A DNA stretch of 30,963 bases from a virus (IMGVR_UViG_2548876954_000010:1-30963), one strand, 5' to 3'; positions 1,592 through 20,233 are shown, counted from the stretch's first letter. A program made the numbers and translations. The notes: generated from the sequence alone by a model not told the origin.

Positions 1592-2428
1592 TTATACGTG
1601 TTTTTCCAATGTGAAAATTACAGCACCTACTGGTGTGATATCTGTAATGCTGCATTCAAACTCGGCAGACTTATTTGACAACCTGACTTTTCCGCCGGGA
1701 AGACGAATTACATCAAAAACATCAAGAGCGCCGTCAATATCAATTAACCAACGCCCATTACTTATGTTCGAAGCAGAACGGTTGACAAGCCAAGAGGCTC
1801 CAACACCTTCAACAAAAATCAACTCCTCTGAGTCAGAGGGTATCATCGAGGGGTCTGGATGCCATTCGCCAGCGTCCTTAAGCTCACCCGCTTCAAGGCG
1901 AAATTTTTTAATTGAAAAACTTGATGTGACCATTTCTCTGTTAGTTCGCATTTGCCCCTTGCCGGTTGCTAACCATTCCAGCGAAACACCAGTATCAAGG
2001 GCACAAGTAACAACTACATCGCCTGGGAAAAAATCACGCCGAACCCATGTGCTAATTGTTCCAGATGATATACCGAGTAAATCACCCAGCTCCTTTTGCA
2101 TAGAAAAACCGTAAGCATCAAGGATGCGTCTCAGAACAGGTTTACCACCTGAAGCCATGACCTTTTCATAAAGCTCTTTGCCCTTCAGGGTCGCACGTGG
2201 AGAGTTTGCTTTTGCAAGCTCCCCTGTCACTAACCATCCGATATCTGCGCCCGTTTCAATAGCACATTCAACAAATACATTGCCCGGAACGCTATCTCTG
2301 GCAAGCCAACTGCTTATGTTGTTGGCATAAATACCAAGTTTTTCGCCAAGTTCTTTTTGCGAGCTAAGTCCATAAGCCGAAAGGATTCTTTCGATAGCCG
2401 GAGCCGCACCATCTCCAAATTTAGCCAT
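1592..2428 (-). CDS. CI-type immunity repressor with tandem-duplicated N-terminal HTH domains
   Basis: 278 aa. Two consecutive copies of the same motif (ERILSAYGLSSQKELGEKLGIYANNISSWLARDSVPGNVFVECAIETGADIGWLVTG and RRILDAYGFSMQKELGDLLGISSGTISTWVRRDFFPGDVVVTCALDTGVSLEWLATG), followed by a ~120-aa C-terminal domain. Divergent from the apl/cII operon and upstream of int, as for a 186 CI-type repressor. Confidence 0.8.
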   Translation of the reverse strand: MAKFGDGAAPAIERILSAYGLSSQKELGEKLGIYANNISSWLARDSVPGNVFVECAIETGADIGWLVTGELAKANSPRATLKGKELYEKVMASGGKPVLRRILDAYGFSMQKELGDLLGISSGTISTWVRRDFFPGDVVVTCALDTGVSLEWLATGKGQMRTNREMVTSSFSIKKFRLEAGELKDAGEWHPDPSMIPSDSEELIFVEGVGASWLVNRSASNISNGRWLIDIDGALDVFDVIRLPGGKVRLSNKSAEFECSITDITPVGAVIFTLEKHV

Positions 2429-2548: not shown

Positions 2549-2920
2549 ATGTCAGATGCAAAATCAATCTCGACGCATGATTCGCAAAACTCACAAAATC
2601 AAACTGTGCTGTTAGATCCGGCTCAGTTTGATGCCATCGTTACCGCTATGCTGCCAGCTCTGCAGACAATGATCCGCTCCGCTATGTCAGACACAATGAC
2701 AGTGAAAGACTTTGCCGCCACTCGCGGTGTAAGCGAGCGTCTGGTCTGGCAATGGCTTGATGAGGGAATCCTCCTCAAAGCTCCAACTAAAGACTTTTCC
2801 AACAAGGAAGAGGCTGGAAAACGAAGCCGCACCCTCGTAAACGTGAAAGCATGGCGCGACAAACTAACCCAGCAAGCGATTGATTGTCGCTACATCGACC
2901 ACCGCATCGCTCTTAACTGA
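2549..2920 (+). CDS. Apl/Cox-like excisionase / transcriptional regulator (HTH)
   Basis: First rightward gene of the switch, strong AGGAGA RBS. Contains an HTH-like segment MTVKDFAATRGVSERLVWQWLDEGIL. Position matches apl (186) / cox (P2). It is longer (123 aa) than 186 Apl as I recall it, so the function is by position and motif only. Confidence 0.55.
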   Translation: MSDAKSISTHDSQNSQNQTVLLDPAQFDAIVTAMLPALQTMIRSAMSDTMTVKDFAATRGVSERLVWQWLDEGILLKAPTKDFSNKEEAGKRSRTLVNVKAWRDKLTQQAIDCRYIDHRIALN

Positions 2921-4488: not shown

Positions 4489-6711
4489 TTGGCTGTTCAA
4501 TTCGCTTATCCGTGGAATGCTCCACGATCGGCTATAGCCAGCCCATACCTTACTTATAAGCAACAGCATCGCCGCGACCGTATGTTCGCGGCGATGCTGC
4601 ATGCTAAAAAGGTGCTTTCTCTCCAGCCCGACTGCGTGCGGTTAGATGTTTATCGCACTGCGGCAGTGCTGGAGCAAAATCAGGGCATTCAACGAGCCAA
4701 TGCCTTTTTGATCAGCTTCTGCAAAAAGGCATTGCCGCGTCTTGAATTGGTCGCAAAAAAATACGAATGCGCGGGTATCAACAGCAAGGTATCAACCTCT
4801 GTTTTTGGAAGTCATTTTGATACCCAGCTTATGCAATATCTGGCGTCACGCATGGTTAATATGGTCGCCCGATATAACCGCCTCCCGGATATGTCGCGCG
4901 CTGATGTTGACCTGTTGGCCGCCGATATTGCTAATTTCATTCGTGGTGAACTTGCCAACATTAATGACCACGGATTCGGCGAGCTTAAAACGCTGTACAC
5001 CTGGTATAATCGTGCTGGCTTTATTTCCCTCCAGTTCAACGTTATCCCCCCCCATTGGGATCGGGTTGCAAAAAAATATGTTGGCGCGGATGAAATCGCA
5101 CCGGCTATCGCCAAGATGTTTAACGATGGGTGGTGGCGTGGTCGTTTGCGCCGGGTTGCAGCTACGTGGCGCGAACACCTGCAAATTGCAGTCGGCAACG
5201 TCAGCAAGAAAAAAAACACCTATGCGAGTAAAAACTGCGTGACTGACTGGCGTGAACAAAAGCGCCGAACTCGTGAATTTCTCAAAGGTCTGGATCTCGA
5301 AGACGAAGACGGCAACCGTATCAGCCTGATTGAAAAATATGATGGCTCAGTTGCTAACCCTGCGATTCGCCGCTGTGAGCTCATGACTCGCATTCGTGGG
5401 TTTGAAAACATCTGTAATGAGCTCGGTTATGTCGGTGAGTTTTACACTCTGACCGCGCCGTCGAAATATCACGCCACGACTAAAGCCGGTTACCGTAACA
5501 GCAAATGGAGCGGTGCCAGCCCGGCTGACACGCAAAACTATCTAACTGATATCTGGGCGCGTATCCGTGCCAAACTGCATCGGGAAGATGTCCGTATTTT
5601 CGGTATTCGTGTCGCCGAGCCCCATCACGACGGTACTCCACACTGGCACATGCTGATGTTCATGCTGCCGGAAGATGTTGAATATGTTCGCTCCATCGTC
5701 CGTAAATACGCGTGGAAAGAAGACCGCCGCGAACTGAAAAGCGATAAGGCAAAAAAAGCACGTTTCCACGCCGAGTCCATTGACCCGGAGAAAGGCAGCG
5801 CAACCGGCTATGTTGCTAAATACATATCAAAAAATATCGACGGTTATGCTCTCGATGGTGAAACCGATGATGAAAGCGGTGAACTGCTGAAAGAGACAGC
5901 CCCCGCCGTTTCAGCATGGGCTTCGCGCTGGCACATCCGTCAGTTTCAGTTTATCGGTGGTGCGCCGGTGACGGTTTACCGTGAGTTGCGTCGCCTCGCT
6001 GATACCGAAACCGCGCACGGACTGAGCGTTGAGTTTGCCGCCGTCCATGATGCCGCCGACGCTGGTGACTGGGCTGGTTATGTTAATGCGCAGGGTGGAC
6101 CGTTTGTCCGTCGCGATGATTTACAGGTGCGCACACTGTATGAACCACGTACCGAGCTTAATCAGTACGGTGAGGAAACGGTATGTATTAAGGGGGTCTA
6201 CGATTCCTCCATAGGTGCAGGTAGCCCGATTTTAACCCGGCTCACTCAGTGGAAGATTGTTCCGAAGCATGCTGTTGATTTGGCCGTTGACCTTCAGGAC
6301 GGCAAAGCCGTCCCTCGGAGTTCTGTCAATAACTGTACGGGAAGCGAAAACGCTCCACCGGTACTGGATTTGACAAAGCCCCTGAGTCGACGCGAAAGAC
6401 GAGAGCTAACCAACCGACTCAGGAAGCAAAAATCAGCAATACGGCGAAAGTTCAGCCACGGAACGGATGAGCAAAACGCAGCTATAGCTAAAACTATCGA
6501 CGAGATACAACTGACAACCGGCATTACAATCAGCCGGAGCGAAGCCCTGCACCTGATGGCCGGTGGTAAAAGTTGTTTTGATGGCAAATGGCTACGCGGA
6601 ACGGCCAAAGGGGAAATATTTTCCGCAGCACCATCGCATGAGGCTAAAGCTCGGAAAATCCTTAATCGTGTTGCGGCGATGGCTGAATCATCAAAACCAA
6701 CACATGAGTAA
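4489..6711 (+). CDS. A: Rolling-circle replication initiator endonuclease (P2 gpA family)
   Basis: 740-aa ORF. Contains the HUH-like motif region (EPHHDGTPHWHMLMF) and paired tyrosines in GYVAKYISKNIDGYAL. Codon at 4489 is TTG; the first in-frame ATG is at 4582, so the exact start is uncertain. Confidence 0.9.
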   Translation: MAVQFAYPWNAPRSAIASPYLTYKQQHRRDRMFAAMLHAKKVLSLQPDCVRLDVYRTAAVLEQNQGIQRANAFLISFCKKALPRLELVAKKYECAGINSKVSTSVFGSHFDTQLMQYLASRMVNMVARYNRLPDMSRADVDLLAADIANFIRGELANINDHGFGELKTLYTWYNRAGFISLQFNVIPPHWDRVAKKYVGADEIAPAIAKMFNDGWWRGRLRRVAATWREHLQIAVGNVSKKKNTYASKNCVTDWREQKRRTREFLKGLDLEDEDGNRISLIEKYDGSVANPAIRRCELMTRIRGFENICNELGYVGEFYTLTAPSKYHATTKAGYRNSKWSGASPADTQNYLTDIWARIRAKLHREDVRIFGIRVAEPHHDGTPHWHMLMFMLPEDVEYVRSIVRKYAWKEDRRELKSDKAKKARFHAESIDPEKGSATGYVAKYISKNIDGYALDGETDDESGELLKETAPAVSAWASRWHIRQFQFIGGAPVTVYRELRRLADTETAHGLSVEFAAVHDAADAGDWAGYVNAQGGPFVRRDDLQVRTLYEPRTELNQYGEETVCIKGVYDSSIGAGSPILTRLTQWKIVPKHAVDLAVDLQDGKAVPRSSVNNCTGSENAPPVLDLTKPLSRRERRELTNRLRKQKSAIRRKFSHGTDEQNAAIAKTIDEIQLTTGITISRSEALHLMAGGKSCFDGKWLRGTAKGEIFSAAPSHEAKARKILNRVAAMAESSKPTHE

Positions 6712-6785
6712 TTCATATCCATATCATGCACATACGGCAATCGCTCTATTCGTTTTTTTTCTTCCCATTTTTTGCCAATACGTGT

Positions 6786-6805
6786 TACTGTATAAATATA
6801 CAGTA
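6786..6805. promoter_or_regulatory. LexA (SOS) box overlapping a candidate promoter
   Basis: TACTGTATAAATATACAGTA is a near-perfect match to the E. coli LexA consensus (CTGT-N8-ACAG, palindromic). Candidate -35 TTGCCA lies upstream; a GGGAGGGA RBS and ATG at 6825 follow. Confidence 0.75.
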
Positions 6806-6824
6806 ACCCTGTGGGAGGGATTTC

Positions 6825-7007
6825 ATGGTTGGCGAACATTGCAGCCGAACGCAGCAAAAGTGGGCTTGTGTGCAATTTATTGCCGAGGTATCTCTGATTG
6901 CAAACTGCAAGCCATCAGACTTAAAGCTCGCGCTCACTCTCATTGCAGACCTAGCAAACAGCGAAAATAACGAAACCGAAGATGATAATTTTTATAAGGC
7001 TGATTAG
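6825..7007 (+). CDS. LexA-controlled small protein; possibly the N-terminal part of a Tum-type antirepressor
   Basis: 60-aa ORF with a strong RBS (GGGAGGGA, spacing 4) 20 bp downstream of the LexA box. It is followed within 3 bp by a dinI-like reading frame. 186 Tum is an SOS-induced antirepressor whose C-terminal part is DinI-like (recollection). Confidence 0.45.
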   Translation: MVGEHCSRTQQKWACVQFIAEVSLIANCKPSDLKLALTLIADLANSENNETEDDNFYKAD

Positions 7008-7009
7008 AT

Positions 7010-7240
7010 TATGAGAATCAATATCACGTTGGATAAAGAACAAAAAATTAGGGCAACAGATCATTGATGCTTTTCAGAATGAAATAACACATCGAGTACA
7101 ATGCGTTTTCCTGCAACAAAAGTTAACGTTAAGAAAGGGTCAATGACTAGTGTAGAGGCTATCGGATTCGATAAAGAGGCGGACAGAGAAACATTAGGCA
7201 GCATATTACAAGAGATGTGGGAAGACGATAGCTGGCGTTA
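7010..7240 (+). pseudogene. dinI-family gene disrupted by two frameshifts (DinI-like domain of a tum-type locus)
   Basis: Three collinear segments across two frames read MRINITLDKEQKIRATDH* / IDAFQNEITHRVQCVF... / MTSVEAIGFDKEADRETLGSILQEMWEDDSWR*. Together they track E. coli DinI end to end as I recall it (MRIEVT..., ...IDALAGELSRRIQYAF..., ...KEDKQRISEILQETWESADDWF...). Stops fall at 7064-7066 and 7143-7145. Confidence 0.5.
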
Positions 7241-7258
7241 AACATAATAACCGTGCTG

Positions 7259-7312
7259 GCGCAAAAACTAGCTTTTTGCGTCGGCGGGGTTGAGTAACGA
7301 GCCCACGAGGCT
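7259..7312. repeat. Copy A of a composite motif: 8-bp-stem hairpin followed by a conserved ~30-nt box
   Basis: Hairpin CGCAAAAA-ctagc-TTTTTGCG (7260-7280), then tcGGCGGGGTTGAGTAACGAGCCCACGAGGC. A second copy lies at 7664-7718. Confidence 0.5.
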
Positions 7313-7440
7313 TAAGTCCTGCCTTTCAAAATTTCTCAATGTGCTATTGATGACACGCCCATGATTAATGAGGCATGACCTGAGATAGTTTTATAGTGGC
7401 GTTTTGACGGCACTGATTAAAATTCATTGAGGGTGATAAT

Positions 7441-7650
7441 ATGCATCGACTACCAGGTGAAATTCCGCATCACAAAACTAAAAGCATCAAACTGATGGCC
7501 ATCGTTCATCGTCTGCAGCAGATAATGGTCAATGAGAATTTGACACCCACAGAGCTGGTCGGGTGTGCCGAAATAGTCAGGGATAATTACGGCAAGCTGG
7601 ATAGCATCAGCAGGCCGACACAATACGCCCCCCCACCACGTCGACGATAG
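7441..7650 (+). CDS. Hypothetical 69-aa protein
   Basis: ORF with a good RBS (GAGGGTGA) and ATG at 7441. Lies between the two copies of the hairpin-plus-box motif. No recognisable motif. Confidence 0.45.
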   Translation: MHRLPGEIPHHKTKSIKLMAIVHRLQQIMVNENLTPTELVGCAEIVRDNYGKLDSISRPTQYAPPPRRR

Positions 7651-7663
7651 CAAACGTCGTCAA

Positions 7664-7718
7664 GCGCTGAAACTCGCTTTCAGTGCTGACGGGGTTGAAC
7701 AACGAGCCACGCGAGGCG
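7664..7718. repeat. Copy B of the composite hairpin-plus-box motif
   Basis: Hairpin GCGCTGAAA-ctcgc-TTTCAGTGC, then tGACGGGGTTGAACAACGAGCCACGCGAGGC. The stem differs from copy A at paired positions (AA/TT in A versus TG/CA in B), so base-pairing is preserved. Confidence 0.5.
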
Positions 7719-8150
7719 TTAGTTGGTTACCTGATTGACACCGAGCGAAAGCAGGTTTGTCACCGCACCGGCAATAACTCCGGGTGTCCCGTCTTTCACC
7801 GCACTGATAATCTTATCGCCCAGCGTTTCATTACCGCCGAGTGCCTCGGGCTTTTTGTTGAGCACGGCGAGTGCTTTCTCGGTCAGGCGCACATCCCGAA
7901 AATAAGTCTGATTGTCTGTTTCATACTGGATGTAGCCGTTTTCACTGAGAAAAGTGAATGTACCCTCAACCACACTACGCAACTGATTCAGTGCTTTCAT
8001 TTCCGGTGAGTTAAGTTGGTCAAAGTAGTCATCAGGTAGCGCGGCGTTAAATTTTTCGTAGGTGATGACCTGCGGCACCGGGAAGTTATCCCATAACACC
8101 GCAAAAATTTCCGCCGTCTGCTGATTAAATAATTCGAGGTTTTTGGACAT
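7719..8150 (-). CDS. Hypothetical 143-aa protein (orphan gene in the A-to-cos accessory region)
   Basis: Minus-strand ORF with AAGGGA RBS upstream of ATG (8148-8150). Ends immediately beside motif copy B. No motif I can assign. Confidence 0.55.
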   Translation of the reverse strand: MSKNLELFNQQTAEIFAVLWDNFPVPQVITYEKFNAALPDDYFDQLNSPEMKALNQLRSVVEGTFTFLSENGYIQYETDNQTYFRDVRLTEKALAVLNKKPEALGGNETLGDKIISAVKDGTPGVIAGAVTNLLSLGVNQVTN

Positions 8151-8340
8151 GCATAATTCCCTTTCATCGATAGACCCGTTTGCCGATTGGGCAAAAAAGC
8201 TGACCGTAATGGCTTCAAATAACGACCTGAGTTCTCGTGAGGTGGAAAGCTACACCGAAAAAATGGTCGAGCAAGCCAGTAAAGATGAGCTTACGGTCGT
8301 TATCAAACACCTGTTAAACCACATCAGAATGCACAAATAA
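8143..8340 (+). CDS. Hypothetical small protein (65 aa); weak call
   Basis: ORF whose start overlaps head-to-head with the start of the 143-aa minus-strand gene. RBS is poor at 8143. A terminator follows at 8481-8505. May be spurious or start internally. Confidence 0.3.
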   Translation: MDMHNSLSSIDPFADWAKKLTVMASNNDLSSREVESYTEKMVEQASKDELTVVIKHLLNHIRMHK

Positions 8341-8480
8341 AATGATCTATATCAATATGTTATCTCTCGTTTATGAAAATCGGTGGACGACGATTTTTCT
8401 GCTGATTTTTGACAGCATGTGCCTCAATAGTGTTATTGGCGCATTACGCGGCCAGTAATCGCGCCAAAACCAGCCCCAAA

Positions 8481-8505
8481 CCGGCACCGTGAATGCCGGT
8501 TTTTT
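8481..8505 (+). terminator. Rho-independent terminator
   Basis: Stem CCGGCA (8481-8486) / TGCCGG (8494-8499) with a 7-nt loop, followed by TTTTTT (8500-8505). Confidence 0.55.
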
Positions 8506-8662
8506 ATGCCATTTTTCCGCGATTTCCCCGTTTTAGCCGTGCATGCAACAGGTGCATGGTTTTGCATTCGCAGGGGTTGCCCGTTCTGACCGTGCGCCGC
8601 CAGAGCTGGCGCGGATCCCGAGAGTTCATGCAACTGCATTAAAACCGCCCCGTAAAGCGGGC

Positions 8663-8681
8663 AGGCGTGGCGGGGAAAGTA
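8663..8681. other. cos: cos site (cohesive-end sequence) of the P2/186 family
   Basis: ggcgtggcggggaaagtat followed by tgcgcgctg matches my recollection of the P2 left end (GGCGAGGCGGGGAAAGCAC TGCGCGCTG...) and the 186 cos. It sits in a GC-rich hairpin-dense ~250-bp segment between the A-side accessory genes and the portal gene, where the permuted prophage map puts cos. Confidence 0.6.
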
Positions 8682-8796
8682 TTGCGCGCTGGATCATAAA
8701 CGATTGCTTACTTTGAAGAAAATAGTGTGCTTATGAACTGCAAACTTTATACAATCAGAATTTGCCGAATCTCTTTTTTGATGAATAAGGGTTTTT

Positions 8797-9624
8797 ATGA
8801 CTGGTGTTGTGAATTACGATGTGGTTATCAGGAGTGGTGATCAGCCCGTTGATATGGATTATGCGCTGGAAACGTTAGGCGGAGCATCGGAAGTTACCTG
8901 TTTACTAGCAGAAGCAATCCTACAAAAAAAAGTCGTTAAAAGAAGAAGTCCTGCTAATAAAGCGCGAGCAGTTTTACATCAGAGCTTCCCGAGTTCTTAT
9001 GGACAAAACTTTGCGTTAGCTATAGATGACCCAATATTAAAAGCTCGTTTAGTTGAAATAACCAACCCTGTACTTGCGGAAATTATGGGATTTTACATAT
9101 CTGAAGCTATGTATATACAACCTCCGGCTTTATCAGCACGAGCCAGACATTATATTGAAGAGCTTGAATATCTTGAAGATGAAATTATAAGCCGTATTCG
9201 GAATCCTTTAATACGCATGCACAAAATTAATTACCGTCGCAACTGGGATATTGATTTCAATTTTAAACCTGATGGTAGACAAAGAAAAATAGTGACTTTA
9301 AATACTAGGACTGCAGCAAATCTAACTCACACAACGGTTGAAAGGGAAAGATTTAATATAATTGCAATGGTTACAAGATTCAACTCTCGTACAGGTAATG
9401 GCCGTTTAGTGCTACAAGATGAGGACGAGACTGTTGCTTTTGGTTTTGCCAACCAATTAGGAATGGTTCCGTCCGCACAGAAAAGAATGATTTCTTTGAA
9501 TCTACATAATAATAATGGAAGATCCGATAATTACATATATCTTAGTATGACTGTCAGTAGGGTTGTAATTATGAGCGGTGAGACTGTAAAATATGCAGTA
9601 CACTCTGTGCGTGTATTGGAATAA
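8797..9624 (+). CDS. Hypothetical soluble 275-aa protein, first gene of an AT-rich two-gene cargo cassette
   Basis: ORF with AAGGG RBS. Markedly AT-rich compared with the flanking phage backbone. No TM segment or catalytic motif I can recognise. Its stop (9622-9624) is 2 nt from the next start. Confidence 0.7.
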   Translation: MTGVVNYDVVIRSGDQPVDMDYALETLGGASEVTCLLAEAILQKKVVKRRSPANKARAVLHQSFPSSYGQNFALAIDDPILKARLVEITNPVLAEIMGFYISEAMYIQPPALSARARHYIEELEYLEDEIISRIRNPLIRMHKINYRRNWDIDFNFKPDGRQRKIVTLNTRTAANLTHTTVERERFNIIAMVTRFNSRTGNGRLVLQDEDETVAFGFANQLGMVPSAQKRMISLNLHNNNGRSDNYIYLSMTVSRVVIMSGETVKYAVHSVRVLE

Positions 9625-9626
9625 GT

Positions 9627-10376
9627 ATGAATAGAATTAAGTGCATATGTGGGTTGATACTAGCTGCTGCTTGGGCAGCGTACTATCTTCATTTTGGCAT
9701 AGACGGAAGCCTCTCCCAAAAAACTGAAGTTTGGGGACAGTTTGGCGACTACGTAGGTGGGGTGGTCAACCCCATTTTAAGTTTTATAACCATATATCTA
9801 CTTATTAACTCAATAGGGTTACAGCGCGAATCTAATGAAAGCTTAACCAATGAAATAAAAAGACAAGAGAAGCTAGAGGAATATAAAAAATTTGAGCTAC
9901 GATTCTTTCGCTTGATTGAATCGCAGGAGGAAAACTTCAGTCGTTTTAAAATATGTATATCACAACAGGATGATGATGAGCAAAATGTTGATGAACAGTT
10001 AGAAAAAACAGATGAAATATTGAGTGGTGGAGCAGCAGTAACATTCATTGAAGATTGTTTGTTACCCCTCAAAGAGGCTGGAGTTAGCAAGGAGCGTGTA
10101 TTCCATTGGTTAGATAGTTTGGATGATGATGGATCATTTTTTTCATTAGTAAGACGTTTCTATCTCATTCTCAAATTAGTCGATGCCAATACACTTACAA
10201 AAAGCGAGAGAGATGAAATGTATGAAACGTTGATTAATCTTACTGATATTAAAGTAATTAGCATCATTGCAATCTTGAGTTTGCATTATGATTGGTACGC
10301 AATCAAATACATTAAGGCAACAAAAATTCTTGACAAGGAAGGAGTTAGGGAATTCGTTGAAATGTATAAAATTTAA
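9627..10376 (+). CDS. Hypothetical membrane protein (two N-terminal TM helices plus acidic cytoplasmic domain), second gene of the cassette
   Basis: N-terminus has two hydrophobic helices (ICGLILAAAWAAYYLHF and VGGVVNPILSFITIYLLINSIGL). The rest is charged and Asp/Glu-rich. AT-rich, closely spaced after the upstream gene, followed by a terminator. Confidence 0.7.
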   Translation: MNRIKCICGLILAAAWAAYYLHFGIDGSLSQKTEVWGQFGDYVGGVVNPILSFITIYLLINSIGLQRESNESLTNEIKRQEKLEEYKKFELRFFRLIESQEENFSRFKICISQQDDDEQNVDEQLEKTDEILSGGAAVTFIEDCLLPLKEAGVSKERVFHWLDSLDDDGSFFSLVRRFYLILKLVDANTLTKSERDEMYETLINLTDIKVISIIAILSLHYDWYAIKYIKATKILDKEGVREFVEMYKI

Positions 10377-19259: not shown

Positions 19260-20096
19260 CTAACCTCGTATTATTCCTCTCGATATTTTTATTGCTGGGT
19301 TTTCCTTTCTTATTTCATTTTTAATTTGCTCATCACAAATTAAATAATCTATGTTTTTTGCTTTAACAAGTTCTTTAACGCTAATGTTAATTGAATTTAA
19401 TAGATTTGCATTCCGCATGTTAGCCCCTTCATAAGTAACGGATTTAAAATCACATCCTTTTAATATGCAGCTTTTCATTTCGCTATCTGTAAAATACCCC
19501 CCTTCAAAACTGCAGTTTTCGAAAGTAACATTTTGAAAACGTGTATTAAATGCCTTAATATTTCTTAGCTTGCAGTTTTTGAATTTAACACTCTTAACTC
19601 TATTGCCTGTAATATTTAGAGCTTGAATTGTGCAATTATCGAAAGAACAATCTCTAATGTATGATTCGCTCATATTCAAGCCGGTTAAGTCAGCGTCTTT
19701 AAAATGTAAGTATTTGATAGTGGACATTTTATCAAGTTCAATCCTTGGAACTTGAATGTTATATATTCCTTTGGCATTTAACTGACGTATGATTTTTATC
19801 TTCATAATATTCAGTTCTGCAGAAGAATGCTTTGCCAGATTTTCAAGATCTTCAATTAGTTCGTGAATAGCATCTTTATTTTGCCTTTTATTTTCAAAAT
19901 AGTAAAGGATCACACCCAAAACAAGAAAGTCTAAAATTGAAGAATTTGCATTAACAAGAAAATTCTCCATGAATTTTGAGTTGTAGTTATCATTATAAAC
20001 AGACAACCCTACTATAAGCCCGGAGTATAAAAAAAAGATACCTATAATATATTTCATATTGCTTATTGTACGCCTAAAAGATGAAGTTCTTTTCAT
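19260..20096 (-). CDS. Membrane-anchored pentapeptide-repeat protein (moron, antisense to the late operon)
   Basis: Minus-strand ORF. Start taken at MKRTSS (20094-20096), with 20141 also possible. Two N-terminal hydrophobic helices (YIIGIFFLYSGLIVGLSV, ILDFLVLGVILYYF), then ~20 tandem pentapeptide repeats (CSFDN CTIQA LNITG NRVKS VKFKN CKLRN IKAFN TRFQN VTFEN CSFEG ...). Very AT-rich against a GC-rich backbone. Confidence 0.7.
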   Translation of the reverse strand: MKRTSSFRRTISNMKYIIGIFFLYSGLIVGLSVYNDNYNSKFMENFLVNANSSILDFLVLGVILYYFENKRQNKDAIHELIEDLENLAKHSSAELNIMKIKIIRQLNAKGIYNIQVPRIELDKMSTIKYLHFKDADLTGLNMSESYIRDCSFDNCTIQALNITGNRVKSVKFKNCKLRNIKAFNTRFQNVTFENCSFEGGYFTDSEMKSCILKGCDFKSVTYEGANMRNANLLNSINISVKELVKAKNIDYLICDEQIKNEIRKENPAIKISRGIIRG

Positions 20097-20233
20097 TACT
20101 ACCTGCCATATGTTTTGTGTGATTTTCGAATGAGTCAACACTCAAATGATACATGAATGCACACCGAATTGTGTAGAAGAGCATACAGCTGAATCGTTTT
20201 GCTCTTGGCTTTAACAATCGGCATTCTTTGTTC

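Follow-up and report, generated by a model that had tools for sequence, protein, structure and literature searches.

The question raised by the locus considered here is whether a prophage that carries a visibly broken gene in its SOS-controlled antirepressor region has lost the ability to be induced by DNA damage. The locus lies at positions 6786-7240 of a viral DNA sequence of 30,963 nt (IMGVR_UViG_2548876954_000010; the whole stretch, at its full length, is referred to below as the window), which is a PSP3-type prophage (Eganvirus, 186-like) of E. coli, integrated beside yfiB. A preliminary description of the window recognised a tum-like antirepressor locus that appeared genetically decayed, a single ancestral Tum protein having supposedly been inactivated by an in-frame stop codon and two frameshifts, with a possible loss of SOS inducibility. 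The analysis presented here leads to a different view, namely that the locus is very probably the SOS operon of a PSP3-type prophage in which LexA-controlled, TumA-mediated induction has been kept, and from which only the accessory gene tumB has been lost. The elements of the operon and the gene upstream of it are as follows.

4489-6711, plus strand: gene A, P2/186-type rolling-circle replication endonuclease (740-aa ORF, annotated by PGAP as 'replication endonuclease' in near-identical prophages)
6762-6791, plus strand: p95-like promoter (-35 TTCCCA at 6762-6767, 18-nt spacer, -10 TACTGT at 6786-6791), placed by alignment to the 186 p95 hexamers
6786-6805: predicted LexA operator (SOS box), TACTGTATAAATATACAGTA, overlapping the -10 hexamer, with one mismatch to the 20-mer consensus
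6813-6819, plus strand: GGGAGGG, Shine-Dalgarno sequence for tumA, read from the sequence and conserved in PSP3
6825-7007, plus strand: tumA, intact stand-alone predicted antirepressor gene (60 aa, TAG stop at 7005-7007), homologous to the 186 Tum N-terminal domain
7011-7241, plus strand: tumB, DinI-like pseudogene (+1 A, TGA at 7065-7067, -1 T, ending with TAA at 7239-7241)

The preliminary description had noted a near-consensus LexA box overlapping a promoter, located directly downstream of gene A as is the antirepressor gene of 186-like phages, and both points are upheld. Apart from the box at 6786-6805, no site in the window matches the LexA consensus at up to three mismatches (nor was one obtained in 100 shuffles), and the box is also the single occurrence of CTGT-N8-ACAG in the whole window. 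It begins 75 nt after the gene A stop, and aligns position by position with the p95 promoter and the LexA site that are annotated in phage 186, the record of which gives the hexamers TTCACA (-35) and TACTGT (-10) as well as the LexA site. In a three-way alignment of the window, 186 and PSP3, approximately 60 nt around the box are near-invariant, and the -10 hexamer TACTGT (6786-6791) coincides with the left arm of the box. The p95-like promoter is assigned by homology alone, because a generic sigma-70 scan of 6600-7750 did not call it, its sole match being a chance-level one at 7073-7102, inside tumB. The intergenic region between gene A and tumA also contains, 5' of the p95-like promoter, an ATCCATATCATG-ACATAC block (6716-6735) that is kept in the window, PSP3 and 186.

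The 60-aa ORF behind the LexA box was correctly described as well initiated, its ATG being located 5 nt downstream of the strong Shine-Dalgarno sequence GGGAGGG. The encoded TumA is identical to PSP3 TumA at 58 of 60 residues and matches phrog_1993 (E 3.9e-31), a family that is also matched by residues 1-61 of 186 Tum (E 1e-22). A direct BLASTP comparison of TumA with 186 Tum gave no alignment, and only a weak match (55% probability over 32 columns) was obtained when 186 Tum was compared with the TumA alignment by hhalign, so that the homology of the two proteins is drawn from shared phrog_1993 membership together with synteny; with the homologous promoter and LexA site, this sustains the relationship to the 186 tum locus proposed in the preliminary description. 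Assignment of TumA to the Tum/TumA group involves homology, placement next to gene A and the LexA box, and the presence of a 186-type CI repressor in the same prophage, all of which were found. In a large protein database, the TumA family comprises 204 clusters, and nearly all among the 120 listed are stand-alone proteins of 60-61 aa, the listed clusters spanning at least 12 enterobacterial genera (including Escherichia, Salmonella, Klebsiella, Citrobacter, Cronobacter, Yokenella, Kosakonia and Buttiauxella). The family core, KWACVQFIAEVSLIANCKPSDLKLAL-LIADLA, is almost invariant, and the window TumA retains 22 of 22 invariant columns. Its F6C variant, found in exactly this form on 227 contigs, affects a position that is mostly hydrophobic and not invariant in the family. 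A Pfam search returned no family for TumA, and a PDB sequence search with it returned nothing meaningful, while an AlphaFold2 model of modest confidence (mean pLDDT 69) consists of a two-helix hairpin with an acidic tail.

The TAG codon at 7005-7007 that terminates tumA had been regarded as an inactivating mutation in a single ancestral Tum gene. This interpretation does not stand, since the division into tumA and tumB is natural in PSP3 and its relatives, and the TAG codon is consequently not a sign of decay. The PSP3 record contains tumA (183 nt, 'similar to 5' end 186 tum; UV induction of prophage') and, after a 3-nt gap, tumB (234 nt, 'similar to dinI and 3' end of 186 tum'). The tum genes of Fels-2 and PSP3 are divided by a stop codon (Lemire et al. 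2011, PMC3121763), and a passage of the same article assigns the antirepressor activity of PSP3 to the upstream gene (G. E. Christie, personal communication via Bunny et al. 2002). With its TAG at 7005-7007 and ATG at 7011, the window reproduces the arrangement in PSP3, D3 and 613R3, and the TAG with its 3-nt spacer is conserved in PSP3, SEN1, SW9, Midge, 613R3 and many E. coli prophages with intact tumB. The preliminary description had itself allowed that naturally split homologues would speak against a decayed locus, and such homologues are what the annotation of PSP3, the work of Lemire et al. (2011), the 204 TumA clusters and a survey of TumA loci all present. The survey, conducted with one genome per species, involved 29 loci with 1.5 kb flanks (two or three of them shortened by contig ends), and is concerned with these flanks, as distinct from DinI genes elsewhere in the prophage or host; about a dozen E. 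coli loci were inspected in addition to it. The following features were counted.

CTGT-N8-ACAG box, about 35-41 nt 5' of the tumA start: 29 of 29 loci
Stand-alone tumA ORF of 59-62 codons, ending with TAG, TAA or TGA: 28 of 29 loci
Gene A homologue directly upstream of tumA: 27 of 29 loci
Any DinI-like sequence within 1.5 kb: 8 of 29 loci

The DinI-like sequence is intact in seven of the eight loci that contain one, and frameshifted in the remaining locus, from an Atlantibacter metagenome-assembled genome (MAG). Given a LexA box at all loci, a stand-alone tumA at all except one, and a DinI-like sequence at only eight, the conserved core consists of the LexA box and tumA. From this comparison tumB is, as far as the surveyed flanks indicate, an optional accessory module, and most TumA-bearing prophages appear to be without one. 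Three individual loci show rearrangement or decay of their own. In the Atlantibacter MAG locus (1687-1916), independent decay of tumB is seen as two tblastn segments in different frames, and in the Franconibacter helveticus locus (1501-1638), independent decay has cut tumA to 37 codons by a TGA. In the E. coli relative ET490 (NZ_CP100947.1; 1-72 of the locus), an ISKox3 (ISL3-family) transposase gene ends just 5' of tumA, at the usual place of gene A, so that the replication gene has been disrupted or displaced, while tumA and tumB are intact.

The DinI-like reading frame, by contrast, is truly broken, and its description as a frame 3 bp beyond the 60-aa ORF with two frameshifts is accurate. 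The tumB ATG at 7011 is located 3 nt past the tumA TAG. Compared with E. coli D3 and phage vB_EcoM-613R3, which are both approximately 98% identical to the window and carry an intact 231-nt DinI-like gene, the window tumB contains exactly two indels, both in homopolymer runs: the first (+1) is a change from A5 to A6 at 7042-7047, and the second (-1) a change from T5 to T4 at 7106-7109. The gain of an A followed by the loss of a T takes the frame from 0 to +1 and back to 0, producing the early TGA at 7065-7067. Translation from the ATG at 7011 thus gives MRINITLDKEQK, undergoes the frame change and terminates at the TGA after 18 codons; the middle portion is readable in the +1 frame only, and the final 46 codons (7101-7241) are back in the original frame. 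In near-identical prophages, PGAP annotates only this remnant (7101-7241, 46 aa). The intact tumB relative aligns with E. coli DinI, as proposed for checking in the preliminary description, and intact tumB is collinear with the 186 product Tum95.5. The match to DinI (PDB 1GHH) covers residues 1-77, its full length (E 4.5e-8). The intact relative scores 63.9 bits on Pfam PF06183 (cutoff 24.2 bits) and the 46-aa remnant of the window 46.9 bits, so that the DinI-family profile is matched, but an unbroken frame of about 76-81 codons over the whole fold is missing from the window. Because of the two frameshifts and the TGA after codon 18, tumB is classed as a pseudogene and not as a functional DinI gene.

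The tumB sequence is in addition a mosaic. Nucleotide similarity to PSP3, at 94%, stops near 7058, about 16 codons into tumB, and the body of the gene beyond this point is of the 186-like type, its intact form being 71% identical at the protein level to 186 Tum95.5 and approximately 47% identical to PSP3 TumB. The end of PSP3 similarity inside the gene and its 186-like character thereafter suggest a recombination junction within tumB.

Both tumB indels are situated in homopolymers (A5/A6 and T5/T4), classic sites of error, and together leave the net length unchanged, as would be expected were they sequencing or assembly errors in a gene that is really intact. Such an origin is exceedingly improbable. 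An identical 460-nt segment containing both indels is present in seven assemblies (the complete genomes of A38 from Australia and TUM14697 from Japan, four other NCBI assemblies and one ENA metagenome scaffold), and assembly error was rejected on the strength of this shared allele; the 46-aa remnant occurs on 51 contigs, compared with at least 1000 for the intact 76-aa tumB allele; relatives from many projects consistently have A5 and T5, tumB being intact in all others that were opened (D3, EC6622, ET490, strain 222, MB06232, 613R3 and PSP3); and the frameshift allele is linked to further substitutions (TumA F6C, and TumB G47S and I69M). The frameshifts are genuine. Either indel alone truncates TumB, and the double indel therefore has the look of a gene decaying in the ordinary way once a first hit had occurred. 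The window is 99.97% identical to the TUM14697 prophage (8 mismatches in 30,963), while the A38 prophage shares the early region (approximately 17 differences in 13 kb) and has mosaic late genes, so that the frameshift allele has persisted through prophage recombination. Residual expression of tumB, whether by slippage at A6 and T4 or through a 46-aa 'mini-DinI' retaining an acidic C-terminal helix, would draw on the compensating nature of the shifts, which leave the last 46 codons in the original frame, and on the PF06183 score and ATG of the remnant (7101-7241). It is nevertheless very improbable, as two separate recoding events would be required at runs that are short for slippage and contain no in-frame canonical X XXY YYZ heptamer, intact relatives use no recoding, and the remnant has no convincing Shine-Dalgarno sequence and, on a structural reading of the full-length alignment, is without strand 1 and helix 1 of the DinI fold. 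Programmed frameshifting and phase variation at A6/T4 were rejected as candidates in view of the short runs, the absence of a slippery heptamer and the intact relatives.

Equally hard to credit is the view that the TAG at 7005-7007, jointly with the two frameshifts, destroyed a fused Tum ancestor and that SOS inducibility was lost. The 186 Tum protein is indeed a single 146-aa polypeptide with a DinI-like C-terminal half, and the window does carry a broken DinI-like part, but the stop codon and 3-nt spacer are kept in relatives whose tumB is intact, in 28 of 29 species-level genomes, and almost throughout the 120 clusters listed (of 204), TumA stands alone as a protein of about 60 aa, and the split is natural, with antirepressor activity in the upstream gene according to the passage in Lemire et al. 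(2011, PMC3121763) cited above. The only rival explanation with some weight, although improbable in its turn, accepts that tumA is intact and supposes that efficient induction needs TumB, for example for RecA filament stabilisation and sustained LexA cleavage, in which case the prophage would be poorly inducible or non-inducible and domesticated. Phage 186 retains the DinI module fused to the antirepressor, its separate DinI-like products are annotated as modulators of SOS induction, and fixation of the frameshift allele in a lineage seen on dozens of contigs is compatible with a prophage persisting by vertical descent. On the other hand, a DinI-like gene within 1.5 kb is absent from 21 of the 29 TumA loci, although each of the 21 has a LexA box and tumA, the host chromosome normally carries a dinI gene of its own, and the rest of the prophage is without annotated pseudogenes: none was flagged by PGAP in the TUM14697 prophage, in which the P2-like gene set is complete, from the integrase to D, together with an ogr-like regulator. 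In Gifsy prophages, moreover, induction was not significantly altered by non-polar deletions of dinI (Lemire et al. 2011, PMC3121763).

In the reading preferred here, that of a retained LexA-TumA switch with loss of tumB alone, LexA bound to 6786-6805, overlapping the -10 hexamer, would keep the p95-like promoter off in the uninduced state. Following DNA damage, RecA-stimulated cleavage of LexA would open the promoter and allow TumA to be made. As the free-standing counterpart of the 186 Tum N-terminal domain, TumA would then bind CI and free its operators, by extension from 186, where Tum is a LexA-controlled antirepressor that binds CI and relieves repression (Shearwin et al. 1998, as cited in a passage of Lemire et al. 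2011, PMC3121763). With CI off its operators, the prophage would switch to lytic growth. The tumB product would be a RecA-filament modulator of the DinI family, the counterpart of 186 Tum95.5, and tumB has been inactivated in this lineage; given the accessory status of tumB, SOS induction is expected to survive its loss, retuned at most. Loss of SOS inducibility, as suggested in the preliminary description, is unlikely and cannot be deduced from the sequence, because TumA keeps all of the invariant residues and tumB alone is a pseudogene. Judged from these sequence features, the prophage is most likely still SOS-inducible. By analogy with 186, the presumed target of TumA is the repressor encoded at the following position.

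1592-2428, minus strand: cI, 186/PSP3-type immunity repressor of 278 aa (PF07022 in two stretches, E 3.4e-48; PF16452, E 8.7e-21)

The window CI is 78% identical to PSP3 CI, and consists of tandem 186-type helix-turn-helix (HTH) domains (approximately residues 8-70 and 95-165), which are similar to each other, followed by a CI C-terminal domain. A long CI of this kind, with 64-78% identity, is found in exactly those phages that have the split tumA/tumB (PSP3, SEN1, Midge, SI22, SW9, 613R3 and RCIP0057). In lower-scoring phages, with CI identity of at most 41% and with the Tum type unscored, the match extends over approximately 490-590 nt, consistent with a single HTH. The 186-type phages differ from the window in this respect, their CI match of only about 585 nt (about 195 aa) being consistent with a single HTH as opposed to the tandem arrangement. 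The form of the antirepressor and the architecture of the repressor may, on this distribution, have co-evolved.

Because the antirepressor of 186 is fused to a DinI domain, a contribution of the DinI module to the efficiency of induction is possible. The loss of tumB could have been non-neutral, having retuned the induction threshold and been repeatedly selected, or, as a lesser option, the 46-aa remnant could still act on RecA; this proposal is tentative and on balance unlikely. Retuning might, for example, lower or raise spontaneous induction, and the idea derives from the fixation of the frameshift allele in a successful E. coli lineage and from the many TumA prophages, the majority, that are without tumB.

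Among known systems, the closest to the window is the tumA-tumB operon of PSP3 (AY135486), which likewise involves gene A, a LexA box and promoter, a 183-nt tumA, a 3-nt spacer and a DinI-like tumB, and which shares the tandem-HTH CI and a homologue of orf37 downstream; the same arrangement is found in the PSP3-like systems of Fels-2, SEN1, SW9, Midge and vB_EcoM-613R3. The window differs from PSP3 in that its tumB is a pseudogene, the body of which is 186-like and not of the PSP3 type. The SOS operon of 186 (tum, transcribed from p95) resembles that of the window in its position after gene A, its homologous promoter and LexA box, and the membership of its N-terminal 61 aa in phrog_1993. In 186, however, both modules are contained in one 146-aa protein, with shorter in-frame products, while the window has two cistrons. 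One of these products, Tum95.5, is a 76-aa internal product recorded as 'modulates SOS induction' and collinear with intact tumB, and even 186 thus yields the DinI module as a separate protein. E. coli DinI (PDB 1GHH), an SOS-induced modulator of the RecA filament, is matched over its full length by intact tumB relatives, whereas the window tumB, with its stop after 18 codons, cannot encode the full fold. The Gifsy dinI-gfoA/gftA operons also combine, under LexA control, a DinI homologue, which was dispensable for induction, with a small antirepressor (Lemire et al. 2011, PMC3121763), but are otherwise unlike the window, since dinI comes first, the prophages are lambdoid, and the antirepressors and repressors belong to other families.

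The operon type, its regulation and its natural split have already been described, and the exact sequence is present in public genomes. The sole particular feature of the window is the lineage-specific tumB pseudogene, formed by two compensating homopolymer indels, and the tumA/tumB locus opens no new biological question. Its value lies chiefly in annotation and in the assessment of prophage viability, as the induction switch would wrongly be called dead if judged by the broken DinI frame. In the RefSeq E. coli records examined, the name given to TumA is 'hypothetical protein', and the remnant of tumB is entered not as a pseudogene but as a short 'DinI-like family protein'. A rule for predicting SOS-inducible P2/186-like prophages would accordingly treat the LexA box and the 60-aa tumA as the core, and the DinI module as optional.

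Downstream of tumB, two further elements were found.

7248-7292, plus strand: stem-loop 3' of tumB (MFE -26.9 kcal/mol, z = -5.4, 0 of 200 shuffles folding as well)
7441-7650, plus strand: 69-aa ORF, homologue of PSP3 orf37 (gp37), matching phrog_11386 (E 1e-46; family annotated as of unknown function)

The hairpin at 7248-7292 has the location of the annotated partial terminator t95a of 186 and no clear U-tail, and a terminator scan gave a call within it, at 7255-7272. An Rfam scan of the whole window found no RNA family. The 69-aa ORF occupies the place held in 186 by orf97, and may lie distally on the SOS transcript, if it is co-transcribed with the operon.

Several genes elsewhere in the window may also be mentioned. 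A cargo block at 7719-10376 separates the SOS operon from the portal gene, and is composed of a minus-strand ORF of 143 aa, another ORF of 65 aa, and two adjacent ones of 275 and 249 aa. Pfam gave no family for any of these ORFs, and the sole PADLOC match in the block is a weak one of the 249-aa protein to ZorB/MotB-like proteins (E 3e-4); the block is a possible moron or defence locus of an uncharacterised kind. In the apl/cox position, a gene at 2549-2920 (plus strand) encodes a 123-aa protein that belongs to phrog_3554 (annotated as of unknown function), shows a weak match to Cox-like excisionases (E 1.6e-4), and is presumably longer than 186 Apl. At 19260-20141, on the opposite strand amid the tail and baseplate genes (minus strand), lies a gene for a 293-aa pentapeptide-repeat protein (PF13599, E 7e-17), the N-terminus of which has a weak SLATT-like PADLOC match (E 3e-5), and in the A38 prophage another hypothetical gene occupies this place.
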